From NCBI GenBank assembly GCA_013140695.1, contig JABFSI010000007.1, positions 15,560-79,559 of the forward strand: a stretch of 64,000 nucleotides of DNA, in the 5' to 3' direction. This stretch comes from Sideroxydans sp. (lineage in GTDB: Bacteria > Pseudomonadota > Gammaproteobacteria > Burkholderiales > Gallionellaceae). Under the pieces are notes generated by a model. That model did not search any database. It was not told the DNA's origin and saw only the letters and a program-made list of their open reading frames with translations. Of this stretch, positions 5,891 to 63,088 are shown piece by piece (the first letter of the stretch is position 1; each line of letters opens with the position of its first letter). The position numbers and the translations under genes are program-made.

Positions 5891-5892
5891 AG

Positions 5893-6345: not shown

Positions 6346-6352
6346 ATCTGTC

Positions 6353-7555: not shown

Positions 7556-7755
7556 ACCACAAACACACGCAGAACGCCAGCGTTCTTATGGGCAGCTTGT
7601 CTTGTCGTCCTGCTCTGGTTATTAAATCATTTGTGAATTAGGGGTCGCCTCAGGAAACGGATTCTATAGCACGTTAAGAGTTTATGTGTACAATTACCCC
7701 AAGTTGAAATTAACCGGTGGACTTCACCCGCTTTGATAGACATATCATAATTGAA

Positions 7756-15422: not shown

Positions 15423-15434
15423 GATCTTATCCCC

Positions 15435-16649: not shown

Positions 16650-16659
16650 GATGTTATCC

Positions 16660-29546: not shown

Positions 29547-31825
29547 TTGGCCTCCCTCAATGTCGTCTGCGAACCTTGACTGATCGTCTCTCGAACCAAA
29601 AGTATGGCACTAGATTTGGAGCCTAGGCGGTAAGCATGTGTATCTTCCCAAAGCGGTTCCTCCCCCGCAACGAACATATCTTGTGGCGCTTCGTGCGAGG
29701 TGTCAGCGGCCAGATGCCACTGAGTATTCGGCAATAAGGATGGCAAACTAAAATCGACTGTATCGGCGCCGGCATTGAACATCAGGTACAAAGCGTTATG
29801 CTCGTCCTCAAGGATCAGGCAGGCAAACTGCTTTTCTTTTGGGTCAGTCCAGTTGGGCAAATCCCCTTGCGGGCTGAACCAAGAGATCTCGGCCTCCGTG
29901 TAGAAGTGCTCCTGACTCAGAATCGGATGCGCTTGACGAAAGGCAATCATGCCACGGGTGAAGCGGTACATCTCCTGATGCTGCTCCAGTTGGCTCCAGT
30001 CATACCAGCTGGTCTCGTTGTCCTGGCAGTAAGCATTATTGTTGCCGCCTTGCGTGCGGCAAAATTCGTCCCCGCCCGATAGCATCGGCACACCGCGCGA
30101 GATCAACAGGGTGAGCAGGAAGTTCTTGATCTGGCGCTTCCTGACGGACTTGATTTGACTATCCTCTGCCTCACCTTCAACGCCGTAATTCTCGCTGAAA
30201 TTCTCATTAGTGCCATCACGGTTGTTTTCTCCATTTGCTTCATTGTGCTTGTTTTGATAACTCACCAGATCATGCAAGGTGAAGCCATCGTGACAGGTGA
30301 CGAAATTGATGCTGCACGCGGGACATTTACCGGTCTTGGCATAAATGTCGGCGCTGCCGCAGATACGACTGGCAAATAAACCGAACATTCCATCATCGCC
30401 GTGCCAGAATCGGCGCACATCGTCACGATAGCGACCGTTCCACTCCGCCCAGCCTTGGGAAAAACTACCCACTTCATAGGCTCCGGCAGCATCCCACGCT
30501 TCGGCGATGAGTTTGGTTCCCCGCAGGATCGGATCCTCAGCGATCCGCTCGAGCAGCGGAGGATTCGACAGCAAGTTGCCAGTGCCATCCCGACCGAGAA
30601 TCGACGCCAGATCAAACCGGAACCCATCCACATGCATCTCCACCACCCAGTAACGCAATGCGCTCAAGATGAGTTCCCGCACCACGGGATGGTTGGCGTT
30701 GATGGTATTGCCAGTACCCGCGTAGTTCTTGTAGTAGCGTTTGTCTGATTCCAGCGTATAGAAAATCGCGTTATCAATCCCGCGGAAACACAACGTTGGG
30801 CCCAGCTCGTTTCCTTCTGCCGTGTGATTGAACACGACATCCAGGATTACTTCTATACCGGCACGATGGAGCGCCCGAATCATTTCCTTAAACTCCAGCT
30901 TCTGCTGACCTAAGCCTCCTGCACTACTGTAGGAGGCTTTCGGCGCAAAGAAGGCCACAGGATCGTAGCCCCAGTAATTTCTGAGTGGCTGGCCTGTTTG
31001 CGGATTGATACCCAGCACCTGCTGTTCATTGAACTCGTGCACGGGCATCAGTTCCACGGCCGTCACTCCCAAGTCTTTGAGGTAGGGGATCTTTTCCATC
31101 AGGCCACGATATGTGCCGGGATGCCCGACACCGGAACTGGGATGGGTGGTGAAGCCACGCACGTGTGTTTCATAAATGACCGTCTTCGCCCAAGGATGTC
31201 TCAGCGGCCGGTCATCATGCCAGTAGAAGTGCTCGTGAGTGAACACGCATTTTGGCATAGCACTGGCATCATCAACATTCGAACAAACCAGGTCTTGCTC
31301 CGGCGCGGACGGGTTATATCCGCGGGCTAGGTCAAAATCCCAATCAGGCAATGGCGAGATCGCCGTGGCAAAAGGGTCCAGGAGAAGCTTGTGGAAATTG
31401 AAACGATGTCCTTCCCTGGGTTGGTATGGGCCATCCACCCGATAGGCATAGAGTTGTCCGGAACGAATTCCTTTAACCCATATATGCCACACATCACCCG
31501 TGCGGTTGTGTGCGGGATCGAAATCAATAGTCTTGGACGGTGTTGCATCTCCCGGAAGATCAAATAACTCCAGACAAACGCGGGTGGCGTAACGGCTGAA
31601 GAAGGCAAAGTTGACTCCTTCGCCATGTGCATAGGTTCCCATAGGCAATGGCATACCAACTCGAACATCAGTCCGCTCCGATACCTCTGCCACATAATCA
31701 TGCAGAGAGCATTCGGACGTAGTCAGATCTGTGATTACGTCCGCCTTTTCTGCGACCTGGACTGACTTGCACAGTATTTGGTCAGTTGGTTTTTGCATTC
31801 TTTTCAGTCTTTTTGACACTTTCAT
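29543..31825 (-). CDS. glgX: Glycogen debranching enzyme (isoamylase type)
   Basis: GVNFAFFSRYATRVCLELF, VIYETHVRGFT, LGVTAVELMPVHEF, DGFRFDLA, EAWD, FVTCHDGFTL. The N-terminal 60-70 residues of the track ORF may be an over-extension. Confidence 0.85.
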   Translation of the reverse strand: MKVSKRLKRMQKPTDQILCKSVQVAEKADVITDLTTSECSLHDYVAEVSERTDVRVGMPLPMGTYAHGEGVNFAFFSRYATRVCLELFDLPGDATPSKTIDFDPAHNRTGDVWHIWVKGIRSGQLYAYRVDGPYQPREGHRFNFHKLLLDPFATAISPLPDWDFDLARGYNPSAPEQDLVCSNVDDASAMPKCVFTHEHFYWHDDRPLRHPWAKTVIYETHVRGFTTHPSSGVGHPGTYRGLMEKIPYLKDLGVTAVELMPVHEFNEQQVLGINPQTGQPLRNYWGYDPVAFFAPKASYSSAGGLGQQKLEFKEMIRALHRAGIEVILDVVFNHTAEGNELGPTLCFRGIDNAIFYTLESDKRYYKNYAGTGNTINANHPVVRELILSALRYWVVEMHVDGFRFDLASILGRDGTGNLLSNPPLLERIAEDPILRGTKLIAEAWDAAGAYEVGSFSQGWAEWNGRYRDDVRRFWHGDDGMFGLFASRICGSADIYAKTGKCPACSINFVTCHDGFTLHDLVSYQNKHNEANGENNRDGTNENFSENYGVEGEAEDSQIKSVRKRQIKNFLLTLLISRGVPMLSGGDEFCRTQGGNNNAYCQDNETSWYDWSQLEQHQEMYRFTRGMIAFRQAHPILSQEHFYTEAEISWFSPQGDLPNWTDPKEKQFACLILEDEHNALYLMFNAGADTVDFSLPSLLPNTQWHLAADTSHEAPQDMFVAGEEPLWEDTHAYRLGSKSSAILLVRETISQGSQTTLREAK

Positions 31826-34696: not shown

Positions 34697-36234
34697 GTTT
34701 CGGCCTCCACGTATACGATTCCGGGTTGTAAAGCGACGTAGTTGAGCGCGTAGGCGAGTTCGCCTGGGGTCTCGGCATGCACGGTAAAGAGCGGCTGGCC
34801 TTTCTCTACGGTTAACCCAAGAGGGGTATGCAGTTTCAGCCCAGCGGCCGGGGCACGTGGCGCGCCAGCGAGCTTGGCCACGCGTGCCAGACGGCGATTA
34901 TCTATCTCCGTTACGCGCCCGCTCTGCACAGCCTTTACCACGTGCATGTACGCAGCTACCGGTAGCTCGCGCAGTCCGCCTTGGGCGGCACAGATGGCCT
35001 CGAATTTATTCCACGCGCGGCCATCTTCCAGAATTTCCCGTGCTAGGCGCGCGCCCTCACCGGGCGATATCCCTGGTGCGAATGCGAGCACCGTACCGGC
35101 GAGGCGTAGCGCACGCTCACGCAGATCCGCCGATGCATCAGCTTCTTGGCGCAATACAGCAAGCACATCGCGCGCCTCCAGTGCCGGACCGATGCCTCGT
35201 CCCACCGGCTGAGCGCCGTCGGTGATGACCGTGTGCACAGTAAGGCCAACAGCATGACCGACCTCAACAAGTAGCGCGCTCAGTGTCTGTGCTGCCTGCG
35301 TGCTACGCACTTTGGCGGTTTCACCCACTGGGATATCGATAACCACATGACTCGATCCGGCTGCGACTTTCTTCGACAATATTGATGCGACGAGTTGACC
35401 TTCACTGTCAAGATCAAGCGGGCGTTCAACGCGAATGAGGACATCGTCTGCCGGACTTAGGCGCATCGCACCACCCCAGACGATGCAGCCGCCTTCGCGC
35501 TCCACTACTCGGCGCATGGCTGGGACATCCAGCTTGACCTCCGTCAGCGTCTCCATCACATCCGCGGTACCTGCGGGCGATGTAATGGCACGCGACGAAG
35601 TTTTGGGCATAGTGAGACCAAAAGCCGCAACAATAGGCACCACAATTAATGTCGTGCGGTTGCCCGGCAATCCGCCGACGCAGTGCTTGTCCACCACTGG
35701 GGGATAGTTCCAAGAGAGCCGTTCACCGACCTCAATCATGGCGCGTGTGAGTGCGATGGTCTCACCGAGATCAAGGCGCGCGCCAGCACAGGCCGTGATA
35801 AAAGCCGCGAGTTCGATATCAGAATAGAGGCCGGCAGCTACATCGCTCACAATTGCCTGCACAGCATCGCCTGCGAGCTTATGGCCGTAAACCTTGGCGC
35901 GCACATGGCGTAGCGACTCGAGCGGAGCAAGATGCGCGAGCGCCACGACATCGCCAGGGCGCGCGTTGAGTCGGCGCCACGCCGCTTCAGACAATCCTGC
36001 CTCATCGGGAGCGAGCAACTCGCTATCCACAACGTTGAGGGTTGCAACCAGCATACGGCCGTTGAGGTGAACCTCAACACGTGTCTGCGCCTCGAAACCC
36101 TCGGCACGGCACACATGGCAATCGCGGCGCATATAAATCACCGCTTCCTGGTAAGTATCGATGCCAAGGCGTCGTAGGCGCAGCGTGTGCGGTCTCTGTT
36201 CGTGTTCAGGATAATTCATGGCGACCGGCCTCAT
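34693..36234 (-). CDS. Thymidine phosphorylase family protein of the long type (putative thymidine/AMP phosphorylase branch)
   Basis: About 510 aa with an N-terminal extension. [37 protein letters not shown], glycosyl-transferase family 3 core and a PYNP C-terminal domain. Confidence 0.8.
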
Positions 36235-38614
36235 TAGATGCGTGCACAGCCACTCCGCTTGGCTGACGGATGCCAGCCAGCTTGGTACGCTTCAGCATTA
36301 AAGCATTGATCGCTACCACCGCGGAACTACCAGACATCGAAAGCGCTGCGATCTCTGGACTCAGCACGAACGGGTAGAAAACGCCAGCGGCGAGCGGGAA
36401 TGCGATGACGTTGTAGCCAACCGCCCACCAAAGATTCTGGTGCATTTTACGCAGCGTTGCGCGTGACAGCTCGATGGCGCCGACGATGTCATAGGGGTCG
36501 CTCTTCATCAGCACGACATCGGCACTTTCCATTGCGACATCAGTGCCAGCACCAATGGCAAAACCGACATTTGCTTGGGTCAGCGCTGGCGCATCGTTAA
36601 CACCATCACCCACCATCCCGACCTTTTTGCCCGTTGCCTGCAACTCTTTCACCTTCTCGGCCTTCTGACTGGGCAGCACATCAGCCAGCACGTGGTCAAT
36701 ACCGAGATCCGCAGCGATGCGCCTGGCGGTGCCGGCGTTGTCGCCAGTCAGCATCACCACCTCGATACCGCGCTCGCGTAACTTGGACACGGTTGCCTTG
36801 GCGGTCGGCCTGATCGCATCGGCGATGGCGATGAGGCCAACCACACGGCCATTCTGGGCCACATATACCACAGTGCGACCATCACCCTGCAGGCGAGTAG
36901 CCTCCGCTTCCAATAGGCCCAGTGCAAGCTTTTGTGTATCCATCAGCAAGCGGTTGCCGAGAAATACTGTCCCACCAGCAGTCTCGGCGCGTGCACCCAT
37001 ACCATCGAGGCTTTCGAATCCTGTCGTTGCCGCGACGGTGAGATGCGCAGCCCGGCGCAGGATAGCCTGCGCCAACGGATGGTCGGACCCCTGCTCGACG
37101 GCAGCGGCGGCTGTCAGCATCACATCCTCGGTAACTCCTTCCGCTACCACCATCTCCACGACCTCAGGCTGGCCGATGGTGAGCGTACCGGTCTTATCGA
37201 AGACGATGACGTTGAGCTTGGTGGCGTCTTCTAGCGCCGAGGCGTTCTTGAACAAAATACCGTTCATCGCGCCCAGCCCGGTACCCACCATGACCGCCAT
37301 CGGCGTTGCGAGCCCCAACGCATCAGGGCAGGCGATCACGAAAACCGTGATGGTCAGCGTCACCGCGAACAGCAGCGGCTGTCCGATCCACCAGAACCAC
37401 ACCGCAAAGGTCGCAAGACCGATGACGATTGCAGCAATCACCAGCCATTGCGCTGCCTTATCCGCCAGGAGTTGCGCCGGCGCCTTTGAGTTCTGCGCCT
37501 CCTGCACCAGTTTTACAATCTGCGCCAGCGCCGTATCGGCCCCGACCTTCGTCGCTTTGTAGCGAAAGCTACCGCTCTTGTTGATGGTCGCACCAATCAC
37601 CGTAGCACCAGGTCCCTTCTGCACCGGCATCGACTCACCAGTGAGCATGGACTCGTCAACTAATGACTCACCGGTCTCCACCGTGCCATCGACCGGAATT
37701 TTGTTGCCCGGCCGGATCACGACCATGTCGCCCTCTAACACCTCCGCTGTTGGAACTTCAATCTCGACGCCGTTGCGGATAACAGAGGCCTTCGCCGGGG
37801 CAAGATCCATCAGTGCTGTAATAGCCGCTGAGGCGCCGGCACGAGCACGCATTTCCAGCCAATGACCAAGCAGGATGAAAACCAGCAATACAGCCACAGC
37901 TTCATAGAACTGCTCACCCTTGAAAAAGAATGTGGTACCGACGCTGAAGACATAACCAGTACCGACTGACAGCACCACCAGTAGCGCCATGTTGAGTACG
38001 CCATTCTTGAGCGCGCGCCAGGCAGCGACGAAGAACGGCCAACTGGGATAGATCACGGCGATGGTGGCCAAGACAAACAGCCACAAATTGAGGTTCAAAC
38101 CGAAAGGCGGTGCCGGTGGCGTAAACAACCCACCCATGGGTGAATAGACAAAGATCGGAATGGTGAATAGCAGGCAAATCCAGAAGCGATTGCGCATGTC
38201 GCGCACCATGGCTTGCATATCCATGCCACCGCCATGACCCATCTCGTGAGCCATGGTATCTTTACCGCCATGCACGGCGTGTCCCGCATGGGCGAGAGGT
38301 GCCTCATGCTCAGCATGCGCTTCATGGACATGTGCGGCATGGGGCGCTATCGCAAGCGCGGCAGCTGGGGGATCTTCAGGCACGCAGACATGGCTCGGTA
38401 TCCGCTCCCCGGCACAGTGATAGCCACACGCATGCACCTTGGCCTTAATGGCCTTGAGGTTGGCCACTGTCTCGTCATAGACCACAGTCGCGCTGTTGGC
38501 CACATAGTTGACCTCTACCTTGTGCACACCTGGGAGTTTGGCAAGCTGCTTCTCCACCCCGCGGGCGCTTAATGCCGACAGCATCCCGTCTACTTTAATT
38601 GTGATAGTTTTCAT
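36206..38614 (-). CDS. His-rich CopB-like P1B ATPase with a CPD TM4 motif and a Cys-less HMA domain
   Basis: [21 protein letters not shown]4 reads [12 protein letters not shown] (checked at the nucleotide level: tgc cct gat). N-terminus [17 protein letters not shown] has no CxxC, followed by [26 protein letters not shown] and [20 protein letters not shown]. Last TMs: [24 protein letters not shown]. Confidence 0.85.
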
Positions 38615-48177: not shown

Positions 48178-48363
48178 CTAAGCCAGCAAACAATCAACTT
48201 CTGCTTCTGCGGCCAGCCAGCTCTCCAAATCACAACCTGAAATAAACCCCTTACTTTCGGCGATGTTATAGGCAGCAACCTCAATATAGTGCTGACGTTG
48301 CTCTTCTGTCAGCGTGGCATCGCCATTAGTTTTGGTATTAGTACTTATTCTTTTCTCCTTCAT
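48178..48363 (-). CDS. DUF2934-like small protein
   Basis: EEQRQHYIEVAAYNIAESKGFISGCDLESWLAAEAEVD. The ancestral ATG appears changed to ATA; the track start overlaps the old Shine-Dalgarno. Confidence 0.65.
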   Translation of the reverse strand: MKEKRISTNTKTNGDATLTEEQRQHYIEVAAYNIAESKGFISGCDLESWLAAEAEVDCLLA

Positions 48364-48440: not shown

Positions 48441-48572
48441 GATGCACTCATGGTGCTGAGTGTGCTTGTATCGCACAACCGCTATTTCAAGCGGCCTACT
48501 AGCGCTTCACGATCATCATCCTTCGTATTGCCATTACAGTACCCATGGTAAAAGCTGTGTGCTGCACACAAA

Positions 48573-48983
48573 TCAATCTTCCATTGCTATCGCTTCGATA
48601 AGTTGGCACACAGCTTCTCCATCCGGCATGCCATCGGGCATATTCACCCATAGTGCTACCGCATGCTCCATGCGTACCTGTAATTTCTCCAAATCCTGCA
48701 GCTTGCAGCGTGTCTCTTGAAGATGCTGATCCATGAGTTTTCGCACCTGCGGACAAGGAGAGTGTCCATGGCTGCTTTCATTCAAAATATCGCTGACATT
48801 TCCCACGCTGAACCCCAGCAGACGCGCCTTGCGGATAAACAATAGACGTACAAGATCACCGCTGCTATAGCAGTTATAGCCGTTACTTTCATCGCGCATT
48901 GGGACAAGCAAGCCACAGCGTGTATAGTGACGCACGGTGTCCGCAGTTACCCCTGCACGTCTGGCGAGTTCTGAAACTGTCAT
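48573..48983 (-). CDS. MerR-family metal-responsive regulator (copy 1)
   Basis: N-terminal HTH VSELARRAGVTADTVRHYTRCGLL, coiled-coil, conserved Cys77 (SPCPQVR) and Cys126 (CQLIEAI). Confidence 0.85.
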   Translation of the reverse strand: MTVSELARRAGVTADTVRHYTRCGLLVPMRDESNGYNCYSSGDLVRLLFIRKARLLGFSVGNVSDILNESSHGHSPCPQVRKLMDQHLQETRCKLQDLEKLQVRMEHAVALWVNMPDGMPDGEAVCQLIEAIAMED

Positions 48984-49425: not shown

Positions 49426-51120
49426 TCATCGGATGTACGCCTCTGTCGCGTAGCGGTGCATCATGCGATGACTGTTGAAGTAGGAAGAATTCTTACTAAT
49501 AGCGCCTTTCATCACTTTGATCCAGCTGCTACGGTCATTGCTGTAATAGAGAGGGAACACTACCTGCTCAAGCTTGTCGTATAATTCGTGTCCGTCGTTT
49601 TCGGCTCTTCCTGCTGCATCACTAATCGCCCAGCCAGTCACGCCCTCAATACAGCCTTCGATCCACCAGCCATCAAGAACCGAGAGGCTGGGTACGCCAT
49701 TGAGCGCGGCTTTCATGCCGCTGGTGCCAGAAGCTTCGAGCGGCGGCAATGGTGTATTGAGCCACACATCTACTCCCGCAGTCAGTAGCTGAGCCAGTTC
49801 AATATTGTAGTCAGGCAGATAGGCCACCCGAATTGCACCAGCCAAGTCGTGGGCATGCGCATACAATTGCTCAATCAGGTGTTTGCCATTTTCGTCGTGC
49901 GCATGCGCCTTGCCAGCAAGTACGATCTGGAACGGGTGTTGGCGGGCGATTGTTTTCAGTCTCTCAATATCAGAGAACAGCAAATCCGGACGTTTATAGG
50001 CGGTCATACGCCGCGCGAAACCAATAATTGGCAGTTTCGGATCCAGCAAGACTCCAGTGAGAGTTTGTACTTTCTCGATGAGATGCTGCTTTGCCTGAAC
50101 ATGCGATTCCCAGATCGCCGCATCGGGAATGCAACAATCGGCACGCATCAGCAACTGGGGTTCATGGCACCAGCCGGGAATATAATGATTATATAACTGG
50201 CGAAAACTTTCTGCCGTCCAAGTGAATGGATGTACGCCGTTGGTAATGGCATGTACTCGATAACCGGGAAACATCGCATTCGACACCTCAGCATGTTTTT
50301 TGGCAACACCGTTGACATATTCACTCAAATTCAAGGCCAGCCGCGTCATATTCAGGCTATCTTCACCGGCCAGATGCTTGATACTTTCGATATCGAAGTC
50401 ATTGTCAAGCACCCTCTGCACCGTATCGTAGGCAAAGCGATCATGACCGGCTTCGATCGGGGTGTGTGTAGTGAAGCTGCATAGGTCACGTACTCTGGGG
50501 AGGTCGTAAAGTGACTCACCCGGCCTGACATCCTCGGTTGGGTAGGTGTACCGGCGTAGCAACTCCAGCCCAAGCAGTGCGGAGTGTCCCTCATTCATGT
50601 GGTAGTGACGGACGTTAAAGCCGAGTGCTTGCAGCAATCGAACGCCACCGATCCCGAGCACAATCTCCTGCTTGAGCCGGTAGACTGTATCTCCACCGTA
50701 TAAATAATGCGTAATTTCACGGTCCTCAGGGTGATTCTCATTCAGATCGGTATCGAGCAACAGCACCGGCTGGCGCCCACCCATGTGACCCTCTACCACG
50801 TATAACCAGGCGCCGACCCATACAGTGCGCCCCTCGATTGGCACTGCAATCTTGGCGTCAAGCGCACGCGTCCAGCGCTCCGGCTCCCAGAAGACCGCCT
50901 GCTCAATCTGCCGGCCTTGGGCATCAATCTGTTGATGAAAATAACCGGCACGGCTTACCAGGCTCACCGCCACTATGGGTATCATGAGGTCAACCGCAGA
51001 CCGTACTGTATCACCAGCAAGCACGCCAAGGCCACCGGCATAAGTCGGAATTTCATTGCGTAGCGCAATCTCCATGGAGAAATATGCAACGCGAGGTTCG
51101 TGGATGAATTCGTCTAGCAT
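49426..51120 (-). CDS. glgP: Alpha-glucan (glycogen/maltodextrin) phosphorylase, short GT35 type
   Basis: Start set at MLDEFIHEP, preceded by GAGAGG. YFSMEIAL..IPTYAGGLGVLAGD, TTHTP, EASGTSGMKAALNG (PLP Lys). Confidence 0.85.
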   Translation of the reverse strand: MLDEFIHEPRVAYFSMEIALRNEIPTYAGGLGVLAGDTVRSAVDLMIPIVAVSLVSRAGYFHQQIDAQGRQIEQAVFWEPERWTRALDAKIAVPIEGRTVWVGAWLYVVEGHMGGRQPVLLLDTDLNENHPEDREITHYLYGGDTVYRLKQEIVLGIGGVRLLQALGFNVRHYHMNEGHSALLGLELLRRYTYPTEDVRPGESLYDLPRVRDLCSFTTHTPIEAGHDRFAYDTVQRVLDNDFDIESIKHLAGEDSLNMTRLALNLSEYVNGVAKKHAEVSNAMFPGYRVHAITNGVHPFTWTAESFRQLYNHYIPGWCHEPQLLMRADCCIPDAAIWESHVQAKQHLIEKVQTLTGVLLDPKLPIIGFARRMTAYKRPDLLFSDIERLKTIARQHPFQIVLAGKAHAHDENGKHLIEQLYAHAHDLAGAIRVAYLPDYNIELAQLLTAGVDVWLNTPLPPLEASGTSGMKAALNGVPSLSVLDGWWIEGCIEGVTGWAISDAAGRAENDGHELYDKLEQVVFPLYYSNDRSSWIKVMKGAISKNSSYFNSHRMMHRYATEAYIR

Positions 51121-51322
51121 AATTGCCCTCTCATTTTGTGGATTCGGTCGCTTGATAGGATGCGAGACAAGCCGCCGTGCACTCATTCACTGTCACCCTG
51201 CATATCGGTCGTGCCATGATCTTTCTTAGCTTAATCCTTTGTGTTACACCTAAGTCAATCCAGAATCTGTCATTACATTTCCCTTCGGATCAACAGCATC
51301 GTCTTATGCACAAAATAGCCCA

Positions 51323-51985
51323 TTAAGCGTTTCCCTCTATCGGTTTACCACTTCCAGCGCGAGAATTTCCGAACAGGAAGTGCAGATAAATGACTGCGCT
51401 TAAAATTGCGGCAAAAAAGCACCATACGGAAAAAAAGGCTACGGTATAGAACCAGTAGGCCACCATAGAAAGCAGCAATGCCAGAGCACCAAAAACCTTG
51501 ATCAACTTGTGGCTCGAAAAAAAAGAACCGACACATGTGGCCGCAAGATAGAGCGCCATCACCGGAACCTGATAAAAATGCGGTGAAACATACACCATGT
51601 TTTCATTAACTTCAGAAGTGACGGGGAATCTGACAATCCAGTAAAGCAGGTACAAGCCGACCGCGATCCCGATGAACTGGAATACTGATATCACCTTTCT
51701 GCGCCAGGCCACGGTTTCCACCAATCCAATGGAAAATGGCACAAATATTGGCCACAGCACATGCGAAAACAGCGTAAACGCATAGGTCATAGTCACGTTG
51801 AGCAACGAAGCATCAAAGCGGAATGACAGCCATAGCATGCCCTCAATGATTTGCTGAACCCCGAACAAAAGCGGGATCATCGCAAAAGGAATCTCTGCCT
51901 TACGTTCCGCTTTTTTCAGAGTTGCCACACCGAGTGTGGACAATGAAACTCCGGCTATAAAACTTGCTGTTGCTGAAAAACACAT
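51323..51985 (-). CDS. Multi-pass membrane protein of unknown function (recalls DUF6629, from memory)
   Basis: 220 aa, about 7 TM, starts MCFSATASFIAGVSL. Confidence 0.55.
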   Translation of the reverse strand: MCFSATASFIAGVSLSTLGVATLKKAERKAEIPFAMIPLLFGVQQIIEGMLWLSFRFDASLLNVTMTYAFTLFSHVLWPIFVPFSIGLVETVAWRRKVISVFQFIGIAVGLYLLYWIVRFPVTSEVNENMVYVSPHFYQVPVMALYLAATCVGSFFSSHKLIKVFGALALLLSMVAYWFYTVAFFSVWCFFAAILSAVIYLHFLFGNSRAGSGKPIEGNA

Positions 51986-52083
51986 AGAACTTAGCTCCTT
52001 TTATCCTAAACCGGATCGGCCCTACGCACTTGGCCGTGATACTTCCCGACATCTGGTGAGTCTTTGCGCATTGATCAACATGG

Positions 52084-53406
52084 CTAACAATAAATATCGC
52101 GCCGCGTGAACGGGACCGGGCTGGAAAATGGTTTACGCTTGGAAACCAAAATTTGATATATCCCGGTATTCCCTTCTTCAAATTGCATGGCGCAAGCTGC
52201 CATATACAGCCGCCAGACACGATAGACGGGTTCGGTCACATAGTTCAGCGCTTCTTCGTGCCCCACTTCGAGTCGTTTTACCCACTCGCGTAGCGTCAGT
52301 GCGTAGTGCTGCCTTAGGTCTTCAACATCGTGAATCTCAAAACCGCCATCTTCCATGAGAGCTTGAACCGTGCTGACAGTCTCAAGCTGACCATCAGGGA
52401 ACACATAGCGATTGATGAATTCGGTCGAAACAGTCTTCTTCCAACCGCCTTCATCACTGGTGATGCCGTGGTTGAGGAACAGTCCGCCGGGCTTCAACAT
52501 GCGATTGGCAATGGCAAAATAGGTTGGCAAATTCTTCAAGCCTACGTGCTCGAACATCCCCACACTCACCAGCTTGTCATACTTGGCCTCGCCCTGGAGA
52601 TCGCGGTAATCCAGAAGTTCGACGGAAACCTGCTCTTCGAGCCCGCGGGACTTAATCGTTCGTTGCGCATGCTCGTACTGATTCTGACTTAACGTAATGC
52701 CATGCGCAATGACGCCGTAATGTTCCGCAGCCCAGCAGACCAGCGCACCCCAGCCGCAACCGATGTCGAGCAGTCGCTCGCCGGGTTTTAGCCGCAGTTT
52801 GCGGCAAATATGATCAAGTTTGTTACGTTGCGCTCGTTCTAGGCTTTGGCTGGCATCCTCGTAATAGGCGCAGGAGTAGACCATCTGTTCATCCAGCCAC
52901 AGCGCATAGAAATCGTTGGAAACGTCATAATGAAAGGAAATGGAATGGCGGTTGAGTTTCTTGCTGGATTTGATCCCGAGCTTTTGTCCTAGGGTTTTTC
53001 TCCATTGCGGCGTGGTGTCGACGATTGATAAGGTTTTGTCTGGCTTAACCCTGAGTGCCTTGGCCACCAGAGCAGCCTTGTCCAGCAGGGATAGTTGCAA
53101 CGAAGTCAGGTAGTGACGCAATTTGATGGCACTATAAAAGTCGCCATCCACATCGACAAGCCCTTGAAAATAAAACTCCGCGAAATGTAGCGGATCGCGC
53201 GACAGGATTAGAGCCTGGAAAGCCTTTGAACAGCGGAAGGTCAGCGAAAACTCTGGGTGACCATGACCAAGATGGATTTTGGAACCGTCCCAAAGGCATA
53301 TGTGAATATTGCCATCATAATCCCGAAAAAGGCGATACAGGATATGTTTGGCCAGGTCAGCGCCAAACATTGCCGACTGCACAATCATTTCTGAAGAATT
53401 TTTCAT
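52084..53406 (-). CDS. cfa: Cyclopropane-fatty-acyl-phospholipid synthase family SAM-dependent methyltransferase
   Basis: HYDVSNDFYALWLD, LLDIGCGWGAL (SAM motif I), VSVGMFEHVG, YMAACAMQFE. Confidence 0.85.
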   Translation of the reverse strand: MKNSSEMIVQSAMFGADLAKHILYRLFRDYDGNIHICLWDGSKIHLGHGHPEFSLTFRCSKAFQALILSRDPLHFAEFYFQGLVDVDGDFYSAIKLRHYLTSLQLSLLDKAALVAKALRVKPDKTLSIVDTTPQWRKTLGQKLGIKSSKKLNRHSISFHYDVSNDFYALWLDEQMVYSCAYYEDASQSLERAQRNKLDHICRKLRLKPGERLLDIGCGWGALVCWAAEHYGVIAHGITLSQNQYEHAQRTIKSRGLEEQVSVELLDYRDLQGEAKYDKLVSVGMFEHVGLKNLPTYFAIANRMLKPGGLFLNHGITSDEGGWKKTVSTEFINRYVFPDGQLETVSTVQALMEDGGFEIHDVEDLRQHYALTLREWVKRLEVGHEEALNYVTEPVYRVWRLYMAACAMQFEEGNTGIYQILVSKRKPFSSPVPFTRRDIYC

Positions 53407-53444
53407 TTACCAACACCCTTCTCAATTACCTACCCGCTCAATTG

Positions 53445-53541
53445 TTTAACTTCAGCCGTTCGATATCGATCTATTTCAATTTCACAGCCAGTCATTAACA
53501 TACATTTTTATCTTAAAGCCCATGTGCAACACATAAGTCAA
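53445..53541 (-). promoter_or_regulatory. MerR-type promoter plus conserved leader block in front of the cfa-like gene (twin of 5716..5805)
   Basis: Minus strand: TTGACT (53541..53536), 19-nt spacer tatgtgttgcacatgggct with the dyad ATGTG-ttg-CACAT, then TTAAGA/TAAGAT. 28-nt block at 53445..53472. The -35 begins 4 nt after the merR stop. Confidence 0.5.
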
Positions 53542-53544
53542 GCA

Positions 53545-53952
53545 TTACATGCCTTCTATCACTTCAATAAGATTGCATAACGTACTATCATCAGTCGCCT
53601 CATCTGGCATTCTCTGCCACAGCGCAAATGCACTTTCCATCCTGCGCTGTAAAACAGTCAGATTTTCCAAAGCGCGGCTGTTTTCTTCGATACGTCTTTT
53701 GATAATTTCCCTTACCTTGGGACAAGGCGATTTACCCTGACGGCGGGTTTCAAAAATTTCGCCAATTTCTGCCAGGGTAAATCCCAGTCCTCGGGCATGA
53801 CGGATAAACCGCACGCACTTCACATCGGCCGGACTGTACTGCTTATAATTGTTGATTGGATTACGAAGCGGCTTTAGTAAACCAATCCGAGTGTAGTAAC
53901 GGATAACTTCTGAAGCGAGTCCCGTCTGCCTAGCCAGTTCAACAACAATCAT
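53545..53952 (-). CDS. MerR-family metal-responsive regulator (copy 2)
   Basis: VVELARQTGLASEVIRYYTRIGLL HTH, Cys77 (SPCPKVR), Cys126 (CNLIEVI). Confidence 0.85.
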   Translation of the reverse strand: MIVVELARQTGLASEVIRYYTRIGLLKPLRNPINNYKQYSPADVKCVRFIRHARGLGFTLAEIGEIFETRRQGKSPCPKVREIIKRRIEENSRALENLTVLQRRMESAFALWQRMPDEATDDSTLCNLIEVIEGM

Positions 53953-54003
53953 TTCTTCTCCTAAGTAATTTCATCGCAACCTCTACCAAGCGCATAAGTC
54001 TCG

Positions 54004-54708
54004 TTAATGTTGCGTCGGGGTGAGTCGCCGCCACATGAGATGCTCATATACGCCGGACCAATAAAGGCCAAAGGTAAAGGCGAACAGCAACTCTTCCAGC
54101 GGGATGCCGAGCAACAGAATTCCGGTGAGCGTCGGCAGGTTCCACACACGCTCGACATAACCGGGGGCGCTCGCTATCAGCGCGATGAAGAAGACGAAGT
54201 AGTAAGCGAGAAACAGCAGGCCGCCAATCCAGGTCTTGGTTTTCAGGTCGGGCCGGCAGGCCATGGTGGCAATTGCTCCCGCCGCCATCGCGGCAATGGA
54301 AGGATAGATCGGATTCCACGGCAGGAAATAAAGCGCCAGAAAAACGATGACTGGCGAGATGAGAGCTTTGTAATGATGGCGGTGCAAGGGTGCGCGTTTT
54401 TCCGGTTCCGGTACGGCTATATCGTTGCGGTGAGCGAGGATAGAATAGAGCACAGAACCTACGCCGCTTATGCCGAAGACGAAGATCAGGCTTTCCAGGT
54501 CGAAGCCGGTTCTCTGCGCCAGGTCAAAAAGCGTAGGAGGATTCCAGTACTCGGGAACGAACAGCGGTTCGGTCAGACCGAAAGGAGTGGTTACCAGGCT
54601 GACGTGCCACATAGTCTTGCGATGGGCTGGAAAAACAATAAACAGCGCAACCCAGGGAATCAAGAATAACGATGCCCATACAAGCCAGACATATTGAAAT
54701 GGAATCAT
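54004..54708 (-). CDS. Lycopene-cyclase-domain membrane protein
   Basis: Start set at MIPFQYVW, preceded by GGAGAG. 7 TM with TEPLFVPEYW and GIPLEELLFAFTFG (PxEE-type motifs of CrtYc/d-like domains). Confidence 0.55.
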   Translation of the reverse strand: MIPFQYVWLVWASLFLIPWVALFIVFPAHRKTMWHVSLVTTPFGLTEPLFVPEYWNPPTLFDLAQRTGFDLESLIFVFGISGVGSVLYSILAHRNDIAVPEPEKRAPLHRHHYKALISPVIVFLALYFLPWNPIYPSIAAMAAGAIATMACRPDLKTKTWIGGLLFLAYYFVFFIALIASAPGYVERVWNLPTLTGILLLGIPLEELLFAFTFGLYWSGVYEHLMWRRLTPTQH

Positions 54709-54820
54709 GCAGGCTCTCCGACGTGAGAACAAAAAAAAGTGGCGGCAACCTGCCGGATTGATCTTCCCTCGGGGCGTGAACAAAGTGTCAAAAAGTGCAT
54801 CCCGAATATCCTTTCTGACA

Positions 54821-55474
54821 TTACGTCGGCAGATCTGTTTGCTTGTTGAATTTCGGCCAGAATGCCGGTGTTTTGGCGGCATAGTGCCGGTATTCCTCGC
54901 CAAATTCGGCTATTGCATCCTGCTCCTCGCGTCTCGCAAGCCGCAGATACATGAACACCAAGACAGGAAACATCACTAATGTAATAAGTGTGGGCCACTG
55001 CAACAGGAAGCCGGTCATGATCAGGACAAAGCCGACATACTGCGGATGCCGCATACTCGCATAGAGCTCGGTAGTTGCAAGCCTATGCTGGCTTTGAGCC
55101 TGGTACAGCACGCGCCACGCCGATGACACCATGATGAACCCGCCAAATATCAGAATATTGCTCAGCATATGAAACGGACCGAAGTGCGGATTGGAGCGCC
55201 AACCGAAAATAATTTCAAGCAGATGTCCCGCATCGTGTGACAGAAAATTGATATCCGGGAACTGCTTTGATAGCCACGGAAACAACAGATAAATCGTCAG
55301 TGGGAAGCCGTACATTTCGGTGAACAACGCTATAAGGAAGGCAGAGAAGGCGCCGAACGAGCGCCAGTCGCGCGGGGTTTTAGGCTTGGTGAAGCTGAAT
55401 GCAAAAATGATGAAAACCAGCGAATTGATGATCACAAGGGACCAAAGGCCATAGGCCGGGGTTGCGTCGGTCAT
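54821..55474 (-). CDS. ICMT-family membrane methyltransferase (copy 3 of 3)
   Basis: LYASMRHPQYVGFVLIMTGFLLQWPT and REEQDAIAEFGEEYRHYAAKTPAFWPKF. Confidence 0.75.
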   Translation of the reverse strand: MTDATPAYGLWSLVIINSLVFIIFAFSFTKPKTPRDWRSFGAFSAFLIALFTEMYGFPLTIYLLFPWLSKQFPDINFLSHDAGHLLEIIFGWRSNPHFGPFHMLSNILIFGGFIMVSSAWRVLYQAQSQHRLATTELYASMRHPQYVGFVLIMTGFLLQWPTLITLVMFPVLVFMYLRLARREEQDAIAEFGEEYRHYAAKTPAFWPKFNKQTDLPT

Positions 55475-55476
55475 GA

Positions 55477-55740
55477 TTACTCCTTTTTATCTTGTTCGTT
55501 GTTGTTAGGATCTGCCTTGTGATCGCCATGCCCACCATGGAACGAATGCAACAGCGGGCAAGCCAGCAGCAATAGAAAAGGCAAAAAACCAAACAGATGA
55601 GCACGGTGCTCGGTAAACAGGAAAAAACCTGCCACGATCAGAAAACCAATCAAGGCCAGCTTTTGCTTCGAGACACCAGATACTTTTTGATGATGTTCGT
55701 GTTCATGCGTCGTCATATCATTTCTCCTATCGGCCAGCAC
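55477..55740 (-). CDS. DUF2933-type His-rich small membrane protein
   Basis: HEHEHHQK N-terminus, two TMs, LLLACPLLHSFHGGHGDH. Confidence 0.7.
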   Translation of the reverse strand: MLADRRNDMTTHEHEHHQKVSGVSKQKLALIGFLIVAGFFLFTEHRAHLFGFLPFLLLLACPLLHSFHGGHGDHKADPNNNEQDKKE

Positions 55741-55763
55741 ACTGCGCCAGCCAGTTATTGTTA

Positions 55764-56231
55764 TCAGTTTGCTGGCAAACGGTATTCAAATTCGGTTTTC
55801 GTTGTACCTCCCTTTCCAGGGCGTGTAATGCGAAGCTCAATGCGGAAAGGGCCACTACCTATCATGTTAAAGTAATTCCCATAGCTCATCGTGCCATTGA
55901 TTTGCATCGGTTCGAGCAGCTTCTGCTGATGCGCCAAACCGAGCGGTATCACCACGGCCTCGACCTTCGCGTCATTGATCCGCTGCGTAATTTTGTTGTC
56001 GTACAACGTCACAACAAGATGATGCGTTCCACTAGGCAAAACGCTCTTGCCGTGCATATCGCTTTCAACATGTTTCTGCGGATGGCTCTTCACAACATTG
56101 GCCGGTACTACCCCGTAGTAAATATCCATACCGTTCACTAGGTGGTGCTGATCGATGCCGTTGGCCAATGATGCAGCTACAGTGAGCACCAAAGCTATCC
56201 CCAAAGAATATCTGTAAATTTTACTGATCAT
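55764..56231 (-). CDS. Secreted protein of unknown function, paralog of 2225..2746
   Basis: Signal peptide. IYYGVVPANVVKSHPQKHVESDMHG ... HHLVVTLYDNKITQRINDAKVEAVV ... KLLEPMQINGTMSYGNYF. Confidence 0.6.
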   Translation of the reverse strand: MISKIYRYSLGIALVLTVAASLANGIDQHHLVNGMDIYYGVVPANVVKSHPQKHVESDMHGKSVLPSGTHHLVVTLYDNKITQRINDAKVEAVVIPLGLAHQQKLLEPMQINGTMSYGNYFNMIGSGPFRIELRITRPGKGGTTKTEFEYRLPAN

Positions 56232-56245
56232 GATGACTGACTCCT

Positions 56246-56677
56246 TTATTCCACCGAAAACACCGTAAGGGTTTCTCCATCTTTAGGTATGTTGTAAACC
56301 GCCAAGGTGCCCTTCTTCACCTCACCCATCCCCGGTGAATTCATCGGCATGCCTGGTACGCTAATACCAGTGATGGCGGGCTTCTCCTTGAGCAGTTTGT
56401 TAATAGCACTCACCGGAACGTGCCCCTCGACCACATAGCCATTGATTAGTGCTGTATGGCAACTGGCAACACGCGCCACGCCGTAACGTTTTTTGACGTT
56501 ATCCATATCGTTTTGATCGATGGCCTTGACCACAAAGCCATTCTCTCTCAAATAATCAACGTACTTCTTGCAACAACCGCAAGTCGGGCTTTTATAAACA
56601 GTAACGGCCTGTCCGGCGAGTGCAACAGCCGAGTTCAATGTCAGCGCAACCGCACAAATACGTATCCATAACTTCAT
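56246..56677 (-). CDS. DUF411 (CopG-like) periplasmic metal-binding protein
   Basis: Start set at MKLWIRIC, preceded by AAGGAGA. CGCCKKY, ASCHTALINGYVVEGHVP, GMPMNSPGMG. Confidence 0.8.
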   Translation of the reverse strand: MKLWIRICAVALTLNSAVALAGQAVTVYKSPTCGCCKKYVDYLRENGFVVKAIDQNDMDNVKKRYGVARVASCHTALINGYVVEGHVPVSAINKLLKEKPAITGISVPGMPMNSPGMGEVKKGTLAVYNIPKDGETLTVFSVE

Positions 56678-56735
56678 GGTTTTTCTCCTTGTCAAAATAT
56701 CAGTGGGCATGCCTATCATGGGAATATTTAGAGGC

Positions 56736-60241: not shown

Positions 60242-63088
60242 CTAAACGATATATCGATCCCATCCCGCATAAGAATCCTTGATCCGCCCGCGCGGGATCG
60301 CCAAGGCAATCAGCAGCACGCCGCAGATCACGCCGTTCCAGGCCGCCAACGGCGAGGCGATACCGTCGAGCAGCCACGGCGCCGCGATCAACCATACGCC
60401 GAACGGGATGTTGATGAAGCGAATGGCGCGCCCGACCTCGGCCCAGGCCATGATCGAAAACGTCACCACCAGCGCGCCGATCAGGTGATCGCTGTCGGCC
60501 ATGGCGCCCGAGGTGTCGAAGCTGAGCCGCGTGAACGTGAGCCAGACGCCGATCGCGATACTGAGCAACAGCGTCCAGGGATAGGTCACGCCGCGCGTGG
60601 CCTGGGCCCACTGCTCGCCAGGGCCGGCAGCCAGCCCCTTGGCGGTGTCGTCACTGCCGCCGTCCATCGCATCGCCGGTCCAGAAGGTGCGCCAGAATGG
60701 CTTGCCTTGCTTGCGTGACCAAATCAGGAACTGGCCCATGGCGACGAACTCGTTGAGCGAATACGGGATCATCAGCGCCATCGCCAGCGCGGCGACCAGA
60801 CACAACGTGCACCAGGTGCCAATCACGATCGGCTGGATGACGATGAAATAGATGCTGACGACACCCAGCGGCACGATCAAGATGCCCAGCCCCAGCACCA
60901 TCCACGGCATGGTGCGCCAGCGGTTCTTGCCGGCCATCCAGGTCATCGCCAGTTCAAGCGTGTAGACGATTGCGCCCAGTGCGCCATCGGCAATCGGCCA
61001 GGCCTTGGACACATCCGAAGTAATGATCGTCTCCGTGCCGTTCATCGCGCCCTTCATGTCGCCCCTGCCGGCGAAGAACGGTTCCCAAACCGTATCGATA
61101 TGGCCGAGCTGATAGGCCCCGAGAATGCGTGCGATGAAAAATCCGATCAGCGCGAGCACCCCGATCGGCATCCGCTGCAGCCAGCTCGACGGCGTGTAGG
61201 CCCAGCCCGGCGGCACGTCCGGCTTGCCCATCATGCCGGCCATGCTCATGCCGGGCATCATGGGAATCAGCACCGACAGCGCGATCACCAGCGCGCCGAC
61301 CAGGGTGCCGTTGGCATAGGCCTCCGGCAGCGGCGTCCAGAACACCAGCGGCGCGAACAGCAACCACAGGCCGACGAAGGCGTTGGCCCACTGCGCCCAG
61401 GGATTGCGGCGCCACGCGTCCGCGGACAGCATACTGAAGACGATCACCAGGATGCCGCTGATGACATCGCTCCAGGTCATCAGCAGGTTGCGCAGTTCGA
61501 ACGACGGCAGCCCGCGCTCGGTCATGACGCGCAACTGGTTGGCGTCGGGAACGAAGTCGCTCAGGTAGCCGAGCGTGAACGGGCTAGTCAGCAGCCAGAG
61601 CCCGAGCATCAGGTTGAGATAATGCGGCCAGAGCATATTGCGATGGCTTTCGACCATCATGTCGCCGCCGTGCCCGGCAAGCTCATCAACCTTGGTGCCA
61701 CGCGGCATCAGCACCATGCCGCATTTGGGGCAACTGCCCGGTTCACTGCGCACGATTTCAGGGTGCATTGGGCAGGTGTATTCGACTGGCTGCGGCGACG
61801 GCGGTGCGACGGGTTCCAGGGTCGTGTCGCACCTCGGACAGTTCCCCGGCAAAGACTGGCAGACTTCCGTGTGCATTGGGCATGCATGCATCAGGCAGCC
61901 ATGCGCGGGGGTCGGTTCGATGTCCATCGTGATAAAAATATCGGTATCTTCGCCGTGCGCATGCTCGGACGCCTCTGACAAAGTATGCTCTGCCTCCTTC
62001 ATCAGGGACAAGGGCAGCTCCAGGCCGTGCTGGCGGTACCAGCCGAGCGGGTCGGCCTTCAATGCCGCCACCATCTTGGGCAGGGTCTGGCGCAGCGTGC
62101 GACTTGGTGCCCAGTCGAGCAGGGTACGGGCGCGCTTGATGTCCAGGGCATAATGGTCGTTGGCCCGGGCAATCATCCACGGCTTGATGAATGGGTCCTG
62201 ACCGGGCATGTGATCCTGAACCCACGCACCCACCTTGGCAATGAGCCCGGGAACATTGTGCGTCTCCCCTGACTTGCCGTGGATTAACCGCATGAATGTA
62301 TGCTGCAGCTCATCGTAGCTCAACGTCTCCGGTTCACCTACAAGTATCACGGACTCAGTCGGCAGTTGGGCACGGCACTCGATAGTACGCTCGATGACGT
62401 CGACTACGTCGTTCAGGTGGATGAAACTCTGGCCGTGCGAGGTCTCGCCGGAATACAGGTGGCCGGCGAGTTGCCCCTCATAGATGCGTTGGATCTGGTG
62501 CGCCAGCGGCGGTGAGTGACAAACATCGTCGTAGACACCGGCAAGGCGCAGGATCACGGCAGGAATCGCGCCGCGCTCCGCCTTGATGAGCGCCTCGGTG
62601 CGGACCTTCGACTCAGGGTAGGCCCAGGTTGGCTCGATCGGCGAGTCTTCGGTGATGAACACGCCCGGCTCGCCGGGCGCATGCACGAGCATTGTGCTGG
62701 AGAAGATGAATTGCTCGACCTCGAAACCCTTGCGCAGCCCGTGTCCCGTACCCTCGCGCAGCCCACGCAGCAGATTTGCCGTGCCCTCGATCGTGATCTC
62801 GTCGTATTTCTGGCTCGGTTTGCCGAGGAAATCGTAATAGGCAGCCAAATGGATCACTGCGGCGATGTGGGTCCCGTGGTGTTCACGCAGGACGCGCAGT
62901 CCTTCACGCACGCTGTCATAGGAAGCGATATCGACCGATATACGCACGCAATCAGGCGGCGCAGGGGTGGGCGAGTTGCGGTCGAAGCCCACGACATCGC
63001 TAAAGCGTCCAGTCAGCCGCTGCATCACCGCGTTGCCGATTCGTCCGTTGCAACCGGTAATCAGAATTATATTTCTTTTTGGTTTCAT
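60242..63088 (-). CDS. 948-aa fusion: SDR/epimerase domain, two heavy-metal-binding (HMBD) motifs, SPW-type membrane repeats and a VKOR-like core
   Basis: ILITGCNGRIGNAV Rossmann fold. ACPMHTEV..CPRC and YTCPMHPEIVRSEPGSCPKCGM. GLWLLTSPFTLGY, GLWLLFAPLVFW, GVWLIAAPWLLDG repeats. WCTLC in a TM helix. Confidence 0.75.
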   Translation of the reverse strand: MKPKRNIILITGCNGRIGNAVMQRLTGRFSDVVGFDRNSPTPAPPDCVRISVDIASYDSVREGLRVLREHHGTHIAAVIHLAAYYDFLGKPSQKYDEITIEGTANLLRGLREGTGHGLRKGFEVEQFIFSSTMLVHAPGEPGVFITEDSPIEPTWAYPESKVRTEALIKAERGAIPAVILRLAGVYDDVCHSPPLAHQIQRIYEGQLAGHLYSGETSHGQSFIHLNDVVDVIERTIECRAQLPTESVILVGEPETLSYDELQHTFMRLIHGKSGETHNVPGLIAKVGAWVQDHMPGQDPFIKPWMIARANDHYALDIKRARTLLDWAPSRTLRQTLPKMVAALKADPLGWYRQHGLELPLSLMKEAEHTLSEASEHAHGEDTDIFITMDIEPTPAHGCLMHACPMHTEVCQSLPGNCPRCDTTLEPVAPPSPQPVEYTCPMHPEIVRSEPGSCPKCGMVLMPRGTKVDELAGHGGDMMVESHRNMLWPHYLNLMLGLWLLTSPFTLGYLSDFVPDANQLRVMTERGLPSFELRNLLMTWSDVISGILVIVFSMLSADAWRRNPWAQWANAFVGLWLLFAPLVFWTPLPEAYANGTLVGALVIALSVLIPMMPGMSMAGMMGKPDVPPGWAYTPSSWLQRMPIGVLALIGFFIARILGAYQLGHIDTVWEPFFAGRGDMKGAMNGTETIITSDVSKAWPIADGALGAIVYTLELAMTWMAGKNRWRTMPWMVLGLGILIVPLGVVSIYFIVIQPIVIGTWCTLCLVAALAMALMIPYSLNEFVAMGQFLIWSRKQGKPFWRTFWTGDAMDGGSDDTAKGLAAGPGEQWAQATRGVTYPWTLLLSIAIGVWLTFTRLSFDTSGAMADSDHLIGALVVTFSIMAWAEVGRAIRFINIPFGVWLIAAPWLLDGIASPLAAWNGVICGVLLIALAIPRGRIKDSYAGWDRYIV

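Follow-up and report, generated by a model that had tools for sequence, protein, structure and literature searches.

What does a regulator of the metal-sensing MerR type do directly in front of a gene for a methyltransferase of the cyclopropane fatty acid (CFA) synthase family? The question is raised by a stretch of 64,000 nucleotides from Sideroxydans sp. (contig JABFSI010000007.1), hereafter the window, whose coordinates are counted from its first letter. The original prediction for this locus held that a metal signal switches on a lipid-modifying methyltransferase, giving metal-triggered membrane remodelling rather than efflux. Our best overall explanation, to which we give a probability of about 0.5, is that a copper-type MerR protein, MerR1, activates efflux plus a cfa-like lipid methyltransferase. 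The gene string in question occupies 51323-56719 and consists of eight co-directional genes, all intact, which together with the signals between them read in the direction of transcription as follows.

56246-56719, minus strand: DUF411/CopG-like periplasmic protein with a CxCC motif (PF04214, 92 bits)
55764-56231, minus strand: secreted beta-sandwich ('Ig-like') protein (AlphaFold2 model, Foldseek fold match)
55477-55740, minus strand: DUF2933, a small His-rich membrane peptide (PF11666, 72.5 bits)
54821-55474, minus strand: ICMT/PEMT-family membrane methyltransferase (PF04140 and PF04191; below NCBIfam cut-offs)
54743-54755, minus strand: terminator-like hairpin 3' of the ICMT gene (consensus scan, a pattern match only)
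54004-54708, minus strand: lycopene-cyclase-domain membrane protein (PF18916, 60 bits)
53545-53952, minus strand: merR1, MerR-family regulator of a two-cysteine SPCP...C-x-LIE subfamily (PF13411, PF00376, PF09278)
53510-53541, minus strand: P1, predicted MerR-type promoter/operator (-35 TTGACT at 53541-53536, 20-nt spacer, -10 TAAGAT at 53515-53510)
53407-53509, minus strand: leader of the predicted cfa transcript
52084-53406, minus strand: CFA-synthase-family (CMAS) S-adenosylmethionine (SAM)-dependent methyltransferase, 440 residues (PF02353, 337 bits)
51323-51985, minus strand: DUF6629 seven-transmembrane (7-TM) protein (PF20334)

The eight genes and their families agree with the original prediction, seven by a Pfam match and the 'Ig-like' one by its fold; the DUF411 gene is likewise real, and its supposed end at 56677 is an internal start (MKLW) of a gene that runs to 56719. 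The string is not a single operon, because a terminator-like hairpin follows the ICMT gene at 54743-54755 and a promoter lies between merR1 and the cfa-like gene. The lycopene-cyclase-domain gene, which probably starts at the Met at 54708 rather than at the TTG at 54903, is separated from merR1 by a gap of 51 nt, and the two are probably co-transcribed; P1 is predicted to open a separate cfa-DUF6629 transcription unit.

P1 reads TTGACT, TATGTGTTGCACATGGGCTT (the 20-nt spacer), TAAGAT; the -35 hexamer is a good one and the -10 resembles that of Pmer. It begins 4 nt past the stop codon of merR1, the ATG of the cfa-like gene (53406) follows about 100 nt downstream, and its spacer contains the dyad ATGTG-TTG-CACAT centred at about spacer position 8, where we take the dyads of Pmer and PcopA to lie as well. 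The MerR-type promoter that had been placed between the two genes is present, conserved in relatives and positioned to drive cfa-DUF6629, and on this architecture it is very probably the MerR1-dependent promoter of that unit. Two further promoters of this kind occur in the window, one of them heading an efflux array.

5774-5805, minus strand: P3, a near-identical copy of P1 (TTGACT, TATGTGTTGCACATAGGCTT, TATATA)
5203-5691, minus strand: YHS-domain protein, the first gene behind P3 (PF04945)
2780-5128, minus strand: P1B-1 (Cu+/Ag+-type) ATPase with two N-terminal YHS domains (Pfam and motifs)
2225-2746, minus strand: paralog of the Ig-like secreted protein, 3' of the ATPase gene (tblastn)
1144-1860, minus strand: PEMT/ICMT-family membrane methyltransferase at the end of the P3 array (Pfam)
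48573-48983, minus strand: merR2, a paralog in the MerR1 subfamily, 44% identical to merR1
48545-48576, minus strand: P2, a second predicted MerR-type promoter (TTGATT, TGTGTGCAGCACACAGCTTT, TACCAT)

The pattern TTGAYYTRTGN7CAYR, designed after the sites were known, occurs 3 times in the window, shuffled sequence giving an expectation of 0.02. P2 overlaps the stop codon of merR2 and faces a DUF2934 gene (DUF2934b, 48178-48363). The P1-like copy at P3 takes in the final ~25 nt of a merR gene as well as a leader of ~110 nt; the leaders of P1 and P3 share GATATCGAACGGCTGAAGTTAAA and have 81% column identity in a pairwise alignment. As a scan of the whole window with Rfam at gathering thresholds gave no matches, this shared leader belongs to no known RNA family. 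Of the merR gene before P3 only those last ~25 nt are left, the remainder having been replaced by remnants of an insertion sequence (IS3) transposase, and the intact merR1 lies 48 kb away. Since one type of operator stands at both P1 and P3, MerR1, as the sole intact cognate regulator, presumably serves both the copper-efflux operon and the cfa-DUF6629 unit. The ATPase behind P3 carries an 11-residue stretch followed by x6-YN-x4-P, and also MALSS, which we take to be the signatures of P1B-1 Cu(I)/Ag(I) pumps. The phrase 'rather than efflux' in the original prediction is wrong, because at P3 the near-identical operator and leader drive an operon with a P1B ATPase of the Cu(I) type and such an ATPase is the usual target across the subfamily of this regulator. 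Lipid modification would thus add to efflux and not take its place, the cfa unit being, as read from its promoter, an extra arm of the efflux regulon.

To which signal, then, does MerR1 respond? Profile matches of its residues 1-105 have solved MerR, CadR, CueR and PbrR structures as the closest relatives, in agreement with its original assignment as a metal-type regulator. MerR1 and MerR2 score about half of every NCBIfam equivalog cut-off (MerR, CueR, CadR/PbrR, ZntR, SoxR); for the CueR models MerR1 reaches 71 bits against a cut-off of 147 (TIGR02044) and 51 against 244 (PRK10227). These scores and the cysteine pattern rule out that it is CueR, ZntR, CadR or MerR proper. An alignment of 22 homologues showed that: 1) the SPCP motif (with C77), W112 and a lone C-terminal cysteine, C126, in the motif x-C-x-LIE are invariant. 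2) There is no equivalent of the first loop cysteine (C112/C114) of CueR, MerR and CadR. 3) Many members have a DGH-x-x-C loop, of which MerR1 itself lacks the histidine. In the profile matches to the solved MerR and CadR structures, C77 falls on the ligand cysteine with which their dimerisation helix begins. Judged by these features and by their gene neighborhoods, the SPCP...C-x-LIE proteins form a distinct two-cysteine subfamily whose usual target appears to be a Cu-type P1B ATPase. Among 80 metagenome loci, of which ~69 were informative, the next co-directional gene encodes such an ATPase in 37; all 6 of the MerR-linked ATPases checked have the CPC, YN and MxxSS motifs, and in distant members of the subfamily, Acidobacteria included, merR stands directly upstream of a YHS/HMBD P1B ATPase.

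The operator of the subfamily has the consensus TTGACC, TGTG-N-CACAGGTTG, TAnnnT, with the dyad ACCTGTG-N7-CACAGGT. A position weight matrix was derived from 12 sites; tested on 83 loci outside that set, it found the element directly after merR in 46 of these and directly before it in ~17 (~63/83 in total). Scanned against 2.2 Mb of cfa-centred loci, the matrix gave matches of at least 18 bits that all adjoin merR or precede a YHS-ATPase, cfa or DUF2934-cfa. These observations delineate a large MerR subfamily, biochemically uncharacterised, that has its own operator and a two-cysteine site and by default acts on YHS/HMBD Cu-ATPases.

In Alteromonas and further marine bacteria, genomic islands carry a related gene cluster, merR-copA-cupredoxin-DUF2933-ICMT (Cusick et al. 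2021, PMC8478169); its MerR was classed as cd04787, and its merR and copA were shown by quantitative reverse-transcription PCR to be induced by copper. The MerR of the Alteromonas plasmid carries the same motifs, APCP...ICHLIE, as the MerR1 subfamily, and the 100 nt read upstream of the Alteromonas merR open with what appears to be the 3' part of the MerR1-type operator. By analogy, the copper induction in Alteromonas is the best evidence that the subfamily responds to copper, and the signal of MerR1 is probably copper or silver.

It is unlikely, in our estimation, that the wiring is real and the signal is something else, either another soft or divalent metal (Zn, Cd, Pb, Hg or Au) or thiol or redox stress sensed through the two cysteines. 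Such a reading would account for the alignment of Cys77 with the ligand cysteine of Hg, Cd, Pb and Zn sensors, for the missing CueR-type loop pair, where the DGH-x-x-C loop of many members could form a tetrahedral site instead, and for the best NCBIfam scores, which are scattered over MerR, CueR, CadR and ZntR. It would also suit an island that carries Zn/Cd-type determinants (RND, ZIP and a second ATPase) and, nearby, stress genes that are not specific to metals (beta-CASP, DUF2231, glucan phosphorylase). However, it sits poorly with the Cu+/Ag+ (P1B-1) motifs in all of the subfamily-linked ATPases checked, with the copper induction measured in Alteromonas (PMC8478169) for a merR of this subfamily and its copA, and with the CopG, P19/CrdA-like and YHS-domain proteins around the loci.

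The second component of the copper reading is the enzyme. The closest solved relatives of the cfa-like protein are the CFA synthases 5z9o (E 8e-75), 7qos and, from E. coli, 6bqc; aligned with these it conserves the SAM motif LDIGCGWG, and the equivalents of E. coli C139, E239, H266, I268 and Y317 in 6bqc, presumably the bicarbonate-site and catalytic residues of CFA synthases, are all identical. Over its first ~147 residues the similarity to the solved enzymes' N-terminal domains is only weak, and the weak matches fall on their lipid-binding N-domain (DUF7884). As its scores lie below the curated cut-offs and its N-terminal alignment is weak, we call it a CFA-synthase-family enzyme and leave its product unnamed; the cut-offs rule out that it is a Cfa or CfaB equivalog. 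The protein is 70-91% identical across Nitrosomonadales, Gallionellaceae, Methylotenera and others, its homologues are horizontally spread on stress and metal islands, and elsewhere its gene adjoins genes for oleate hydratase and for members of the cardiolipin synthase and sterol-desaturase families. We consider it likely from these relationships that the substrate is an unsaturated membrane lipid.

The regulation might also be as we propose and the enzyme, as one of a battery of island methyltransferases, act on something other than bulk phospholipid. Its target would then be olefinic or nucleophilic, for instance a small molecule or a lipid of the isoprenoid or quinone type whose synthesis involves the adjacent lycopene-cyclase-domain protein. 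The sub-threshold scores against every equivalog model and the weakly aligning N-terminal region leave room for this; so do the wealth of ICMT/PEMT and UbiE-like methyltransferases on these islands, the extra archaeal-type SAM synthetase of the window, and the frequent adjacency of a lycopene-cyclase-domain gene (loci L002, L018, L081 and L175 in our own numbering). Nonetheless, residues specific to olefin-methylating CMAS enzymes, those for bicarbonate binding and catalysis, are all present, among solved structures bacterial phospholipid CFA synthases come closest, and even the weak N-terminal matches fall on the lipid-binding domain, so that we hold a change of substrate to be improbable.

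The partner gene, DUF6629, follows cfa in other loci as well (L004, L005, L008, L081 and L090). Its product is 74-94% identical across many orders, with an invariant N-terminal MCFS, H75, E48, C151 and C189, a conservation that is unusually strong for an uncharacterised protein. The AlphaFold2 model (predicted local distance difference test, pLDDT, 80.7) is a 7-TM bundle, for which a Foldseek search of the PDB returned only generic 7-TM bundles (best E 0.06, TM score ~0.5).

Is the coupling of merR to cfa a peculiarity of this genome? The original prediction had called for a survey of cfa homologues preceded by merR, and in other genomes, with 80 species-representative loci of cfa-like homologues among those covered, the wiring does recur. 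A MerR-type promoter precedes cfa or DUF2934-cfa in L001, L008 and L009 (via DUF2934), L038, L061, L081, L083-85 and L175, and also on plasmid p1-T1 of Acidovorax sp. T1, where merR is CCX87_RS19115 and cfa is CCX87_RS19110. The MerR proteins of these loci are 41-50% identical between groups, the cfa proteins are 52-80% identical to that of the window, and the operator is kept in each case. In a neighbour-joining tree, of low resolution as it is computed from a protein of 135 residues, the MerRs of merR-cfa loci stand at four or five places among copA-linked members. Because divergent MerRs are thus scattered in the tree, the distribution argues for repeated recruitment, or else long retention, of the coupling, and the same low-resolution tree disfavours a single origin of the merR-to-cfa arrangement. 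On Ralstonia pickettii plasmids cfa-DUF6629 is found directly upstream of a P1B ATPase, within a copper island. That the merR-promoter cassette was merely recombined in front of cfa by island mosaicism, with no adaptive role or with P1 unused, would fit the duplication of the P3 cassette in P1 and its leader, the IS3 remnants and strong GC mosaicism as marks of frequent rearrangement, and the many cfa homologues that lack merR, but is very unlikely given that merR-(DUF2934)-cfa recurs with divergent MerRs at four or five tree places with the operator kept, and that chance adjacency of a regulator found about once per genome in more than 6 of 80 loci is itself very unlikely. Our literature searches found no description of a MerR-controlled cfa, in line with what had originally been stated, and those on YHS with MerR, on TLPQC with cyclopropane and on DUF6629 returned nothing relevant.

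Cfa homologues without merR have other upstream contexts, for instance a universal-stress-protein gene in Polaromonas. As a separate observation, a different conserved motif, GGGTAATTACCCGCATTGAGCGCAAA, precedes the merR-less cfa homologues in L010, L011, L014, L016 and L017, and may be the site of another regulator.

Put together, the elements suggest the following mechanism. MerR1 would be a metal-sensing activator that normally turns on a P1B ATPase for Cu(I)/Ag(I) export. A MerR1 dimer would occupy the dyad that P1 and P3 each carry within their over-long 20-nt spacer; upon binding of metal, most likely Cu(I), it would untwist the spacer and so make the -35 and -10 elements usable by sigma-70 RNA polymerase. 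P3 would then drive the YHS protein, copA, the Ig-like protein and the PEMT/ICMT, that is efflux and periplasmic copper handling, while P1 would drive the cfa-like methyltransferase together with DUF6629, its 7-TM partner. The enzyme would take a methylene or methyl group from SAM and place it on double bonds in phospholipid acyl chains, yielding cyclopropane or methyl-branched groups; the outcome would be a less permeable membrane with fewer sites for copper-driven peroxidation while the pump lowers cytoplasmic copper. Within this scheme the wiring has good support, and the metal, the substrate and the advantage to the cell are inferred. A more specific version, namely that a copper sensor with a non-CueR inter-subunit site (C77' and C126) has been repeatedly wired by mobile islands to a CFA-family enzyme and DUF6629, so that copper triggers the removal of lipid double bonds in parallel to efflux, is one that we advance only tentatively.

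Several observations weigh against the proposal that MerR1 couples a copper signal to lipid methylation. Firstly, MerR1 does not have the C112/C120 pair of CueR, possessing the single loop cysteine C126, and it has a cysteine in place of Ser77, a substitution that favours divalent ions in known sensors (the roles of these CueR residues being those seen in CueR structures). Because the pair is absent and position 77 is a cysteine, we infer copper from the target genes and not from the binding site. Secondly, the cfa-like protein falls short of the NCBIfam cut-offs, with 392 of 650 for CfaB, 285 of 400 for PRK11705 and 281 of 600 for the Brucella type. Thirdly, ~70 of the 80 species-representative cfa homologue loci have no merR nearby, and cfa follows merR in none of 80 more distant metagenome MerR loci; MerR control of cfa-like genes is optional. 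Finally, since no terminator separates merR1 from P1, transcripts that continue past merR1 could express the cfa-like gene independently of metal.

If the proposal is correct, bacteria would possess a 'membrane-proofing' arm of copper resistance, which guards against copper-driven lipid peroxidation. Known metal regulons of the MerR/CueR type consist almost entirely of pumps, chaperones and oxidases; membrane chemistry would become a regulated part of metal resistance, and the locus would offer a genetic handle on copper damage to unsaturated lipids. Cultured and tractable hosts are at hand in Acidovorax sp. T1 (plasmid p1-T1), in Ralstonia pickettii (plasmids) and in Alteromonas (plasmids).

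The genes upstream of the lycopene-cyclase-domain gene bear on a further part of the original prediction, which had placed the regulator in a run of membrane-lipid-type enzymes. The cfa-like gene keeps its family assignment, but the DUF411, Ig-like, DUF2933 and ICMT genes are better read as a known copper-island module, published as merR-copA-cupredoxin-DUF2933-ICMT (PMC8478169). For the secreted protein at 55764-56231 a Pfam search gave no matches and a comparison with PDB sequences found no similarity, leaving the fold search alone informative. Its AlphaFold2 model (pLDDT 70.8), built from two window paralogs, of which the one at 2225-2746 is 44% identical by tblastn, matched FtrA, FetP, P19, DUF4426 and H. 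pylori CrdA in Foldseek (E ~1e-6, TM score ~0.6). The matched fold class is that of periplasmic copper-binding beta-sandwiches, CrdA being a copper-resistance protein; the label 'Ig-like' is fair because the model matches the P19/FetP/FtrA/CrdA beta-sandwich. A megablast of the region against plasmids found just one short ICMT match, in Variovorax.

The remainder of the window has the character of a metal island. Three P1B ATPases are encoded on the minus strand, at 2780-5128 (YHS/Cu-type), 8729-11152 (HMA with CPC, without YN/MxxSS) and 36206-38614 (another HMA type); further transporters comprise a CzcCBA-like resistance-nodulation-division (RND) system, ZIP, FTR1, ABC-2 and MFS proteins (12264-17967 on the minus strand belongs to the same group of features). 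An archaeal-type SAM synthetase (6353-7555, plus strand; PF01941, 532 bits) is flanked by IS3-family fragments at 5830-6350 and 7600-8250. The island encodes at least four SAM-dependent methyltransferases, namely the ICMT proteins at 54821-55474 and 28011-28724, the PEMT/ICMT at 1144-1860 and the cfa-like enzyme, and the synthetase may be an island-borne SAM supply. A 948-residue fusion at 60242-63088 (minus strand) joins an NAD-dependent epimerase/dehydratase, two HMBD heavy-metal-binding motifs, a VKOR domain and SPW repeats; the same fusion is also found downstream of a MerR1 homologue in L173. Glycogen enzymes are represented by an isoamylase (29543-31825) and a glucan phosphorylase (49426-51186). 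Blocks of ~45% and ~60% GC alternate across the window, which suggests a mosaic origin of the island.

Behind P2, 46313-48363 (minus strand) holds DUF2934, a DUF2934 pseudogene, a SHOCT-like peptide, two His-rich membrane peptides (GHGGHGGHSGH) and two DUF5676-like membrane proteins, small genes that recur in related islands. The DUF2934 leaders contain a conserved four-codon motif resembling an upstream open reading frame, ATG GCT GAA A(T/C)T TAA (M-A-E-I/T-stop), at 49300 and 48419 (minus strand) in the window, at 5654 in L001 and at 8502 in L081, with no Rfam match; a related motif, GGCTGAAGTTAAA, is present in the leaders of P1 and P3.

How does the locus compare with known systems? Like CueR with PcopA, and like the MerR, ZntR, CadR and PbrR systems, MerR1 combines a winged-helix N-domain, a long dimerisation helix and a C-terminal cysteine with an operator dyad inside an over-long -35/-10 spacer and a P1B ATPase as target. 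Unlike them, it has only two conserved cysteines (C77 and C126) and no equivalent of C112; its gene lies in tandem, either directly upstream of the unit it regulates or within it, and is not divergent or unlinked; the spacer is 20 nt long, the operator is ACCTGTG-N7-CACAGGT, and the cargo includes a cfa-like gene. The Alteromonas module (PMC8478169) is alike in the succession of a Cu-ATPase, a secreted beta-sandwich protein, DUF2933 and ICMT, and in its residence on islands and plasmids. It differs in four respects: 1) neither the cluster nor the paper includes a cfa-like gene. 2) The secreted protein of the window has no BLASTP similarity to the Alteromonas cupredoxin and has a P19/CrdA-like fold instead. 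3) The window ATPase has YHS N-domains, whereas that of Alteromonas has HMA. 4) In the window the module is split into P3-copA...PEMT and DUF411-Ig-DUF2933-ICMT.

With the CFA synthases of E. coli (Cfa), P. putida (CfaB), L. acidophilus and Aquifex the window enzyme shares the CMAS fold, the SAM motif, the five residues and the two-domain layout; its 440-residue length, divergent N-terminal region, DUF6629 partner and MerR-type promoter set it apart. The E. coli cfa gene is under the control of RpoS and small RNAs. CzcN and NccN are ICMT-family proteins in the czc and ncc determinants of Cupriavidus, and thus resemble the present case in placing an ICMT-family methyltransferase inside metal-resistance determinants, although they belong to a Co/Zn/Cd/Ni RND system and are not known to be MerR-controlled. 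In Rhodobacter sphaeroides the Sigma-E/ChrR pair switches on CFA-family enzymes (UfaM and relatives) under singlet-oxygen stress. That system differs in employing an extracytoplasmic function sigma factor with its anti-sigma factor, in the stress signal and in having a chromosomal regulon rather than a mobile island, yet it provides a precedent for a dedicated stress sensor directly driving a CMAS-family enzyme that acts on unsaturated acyl chains.

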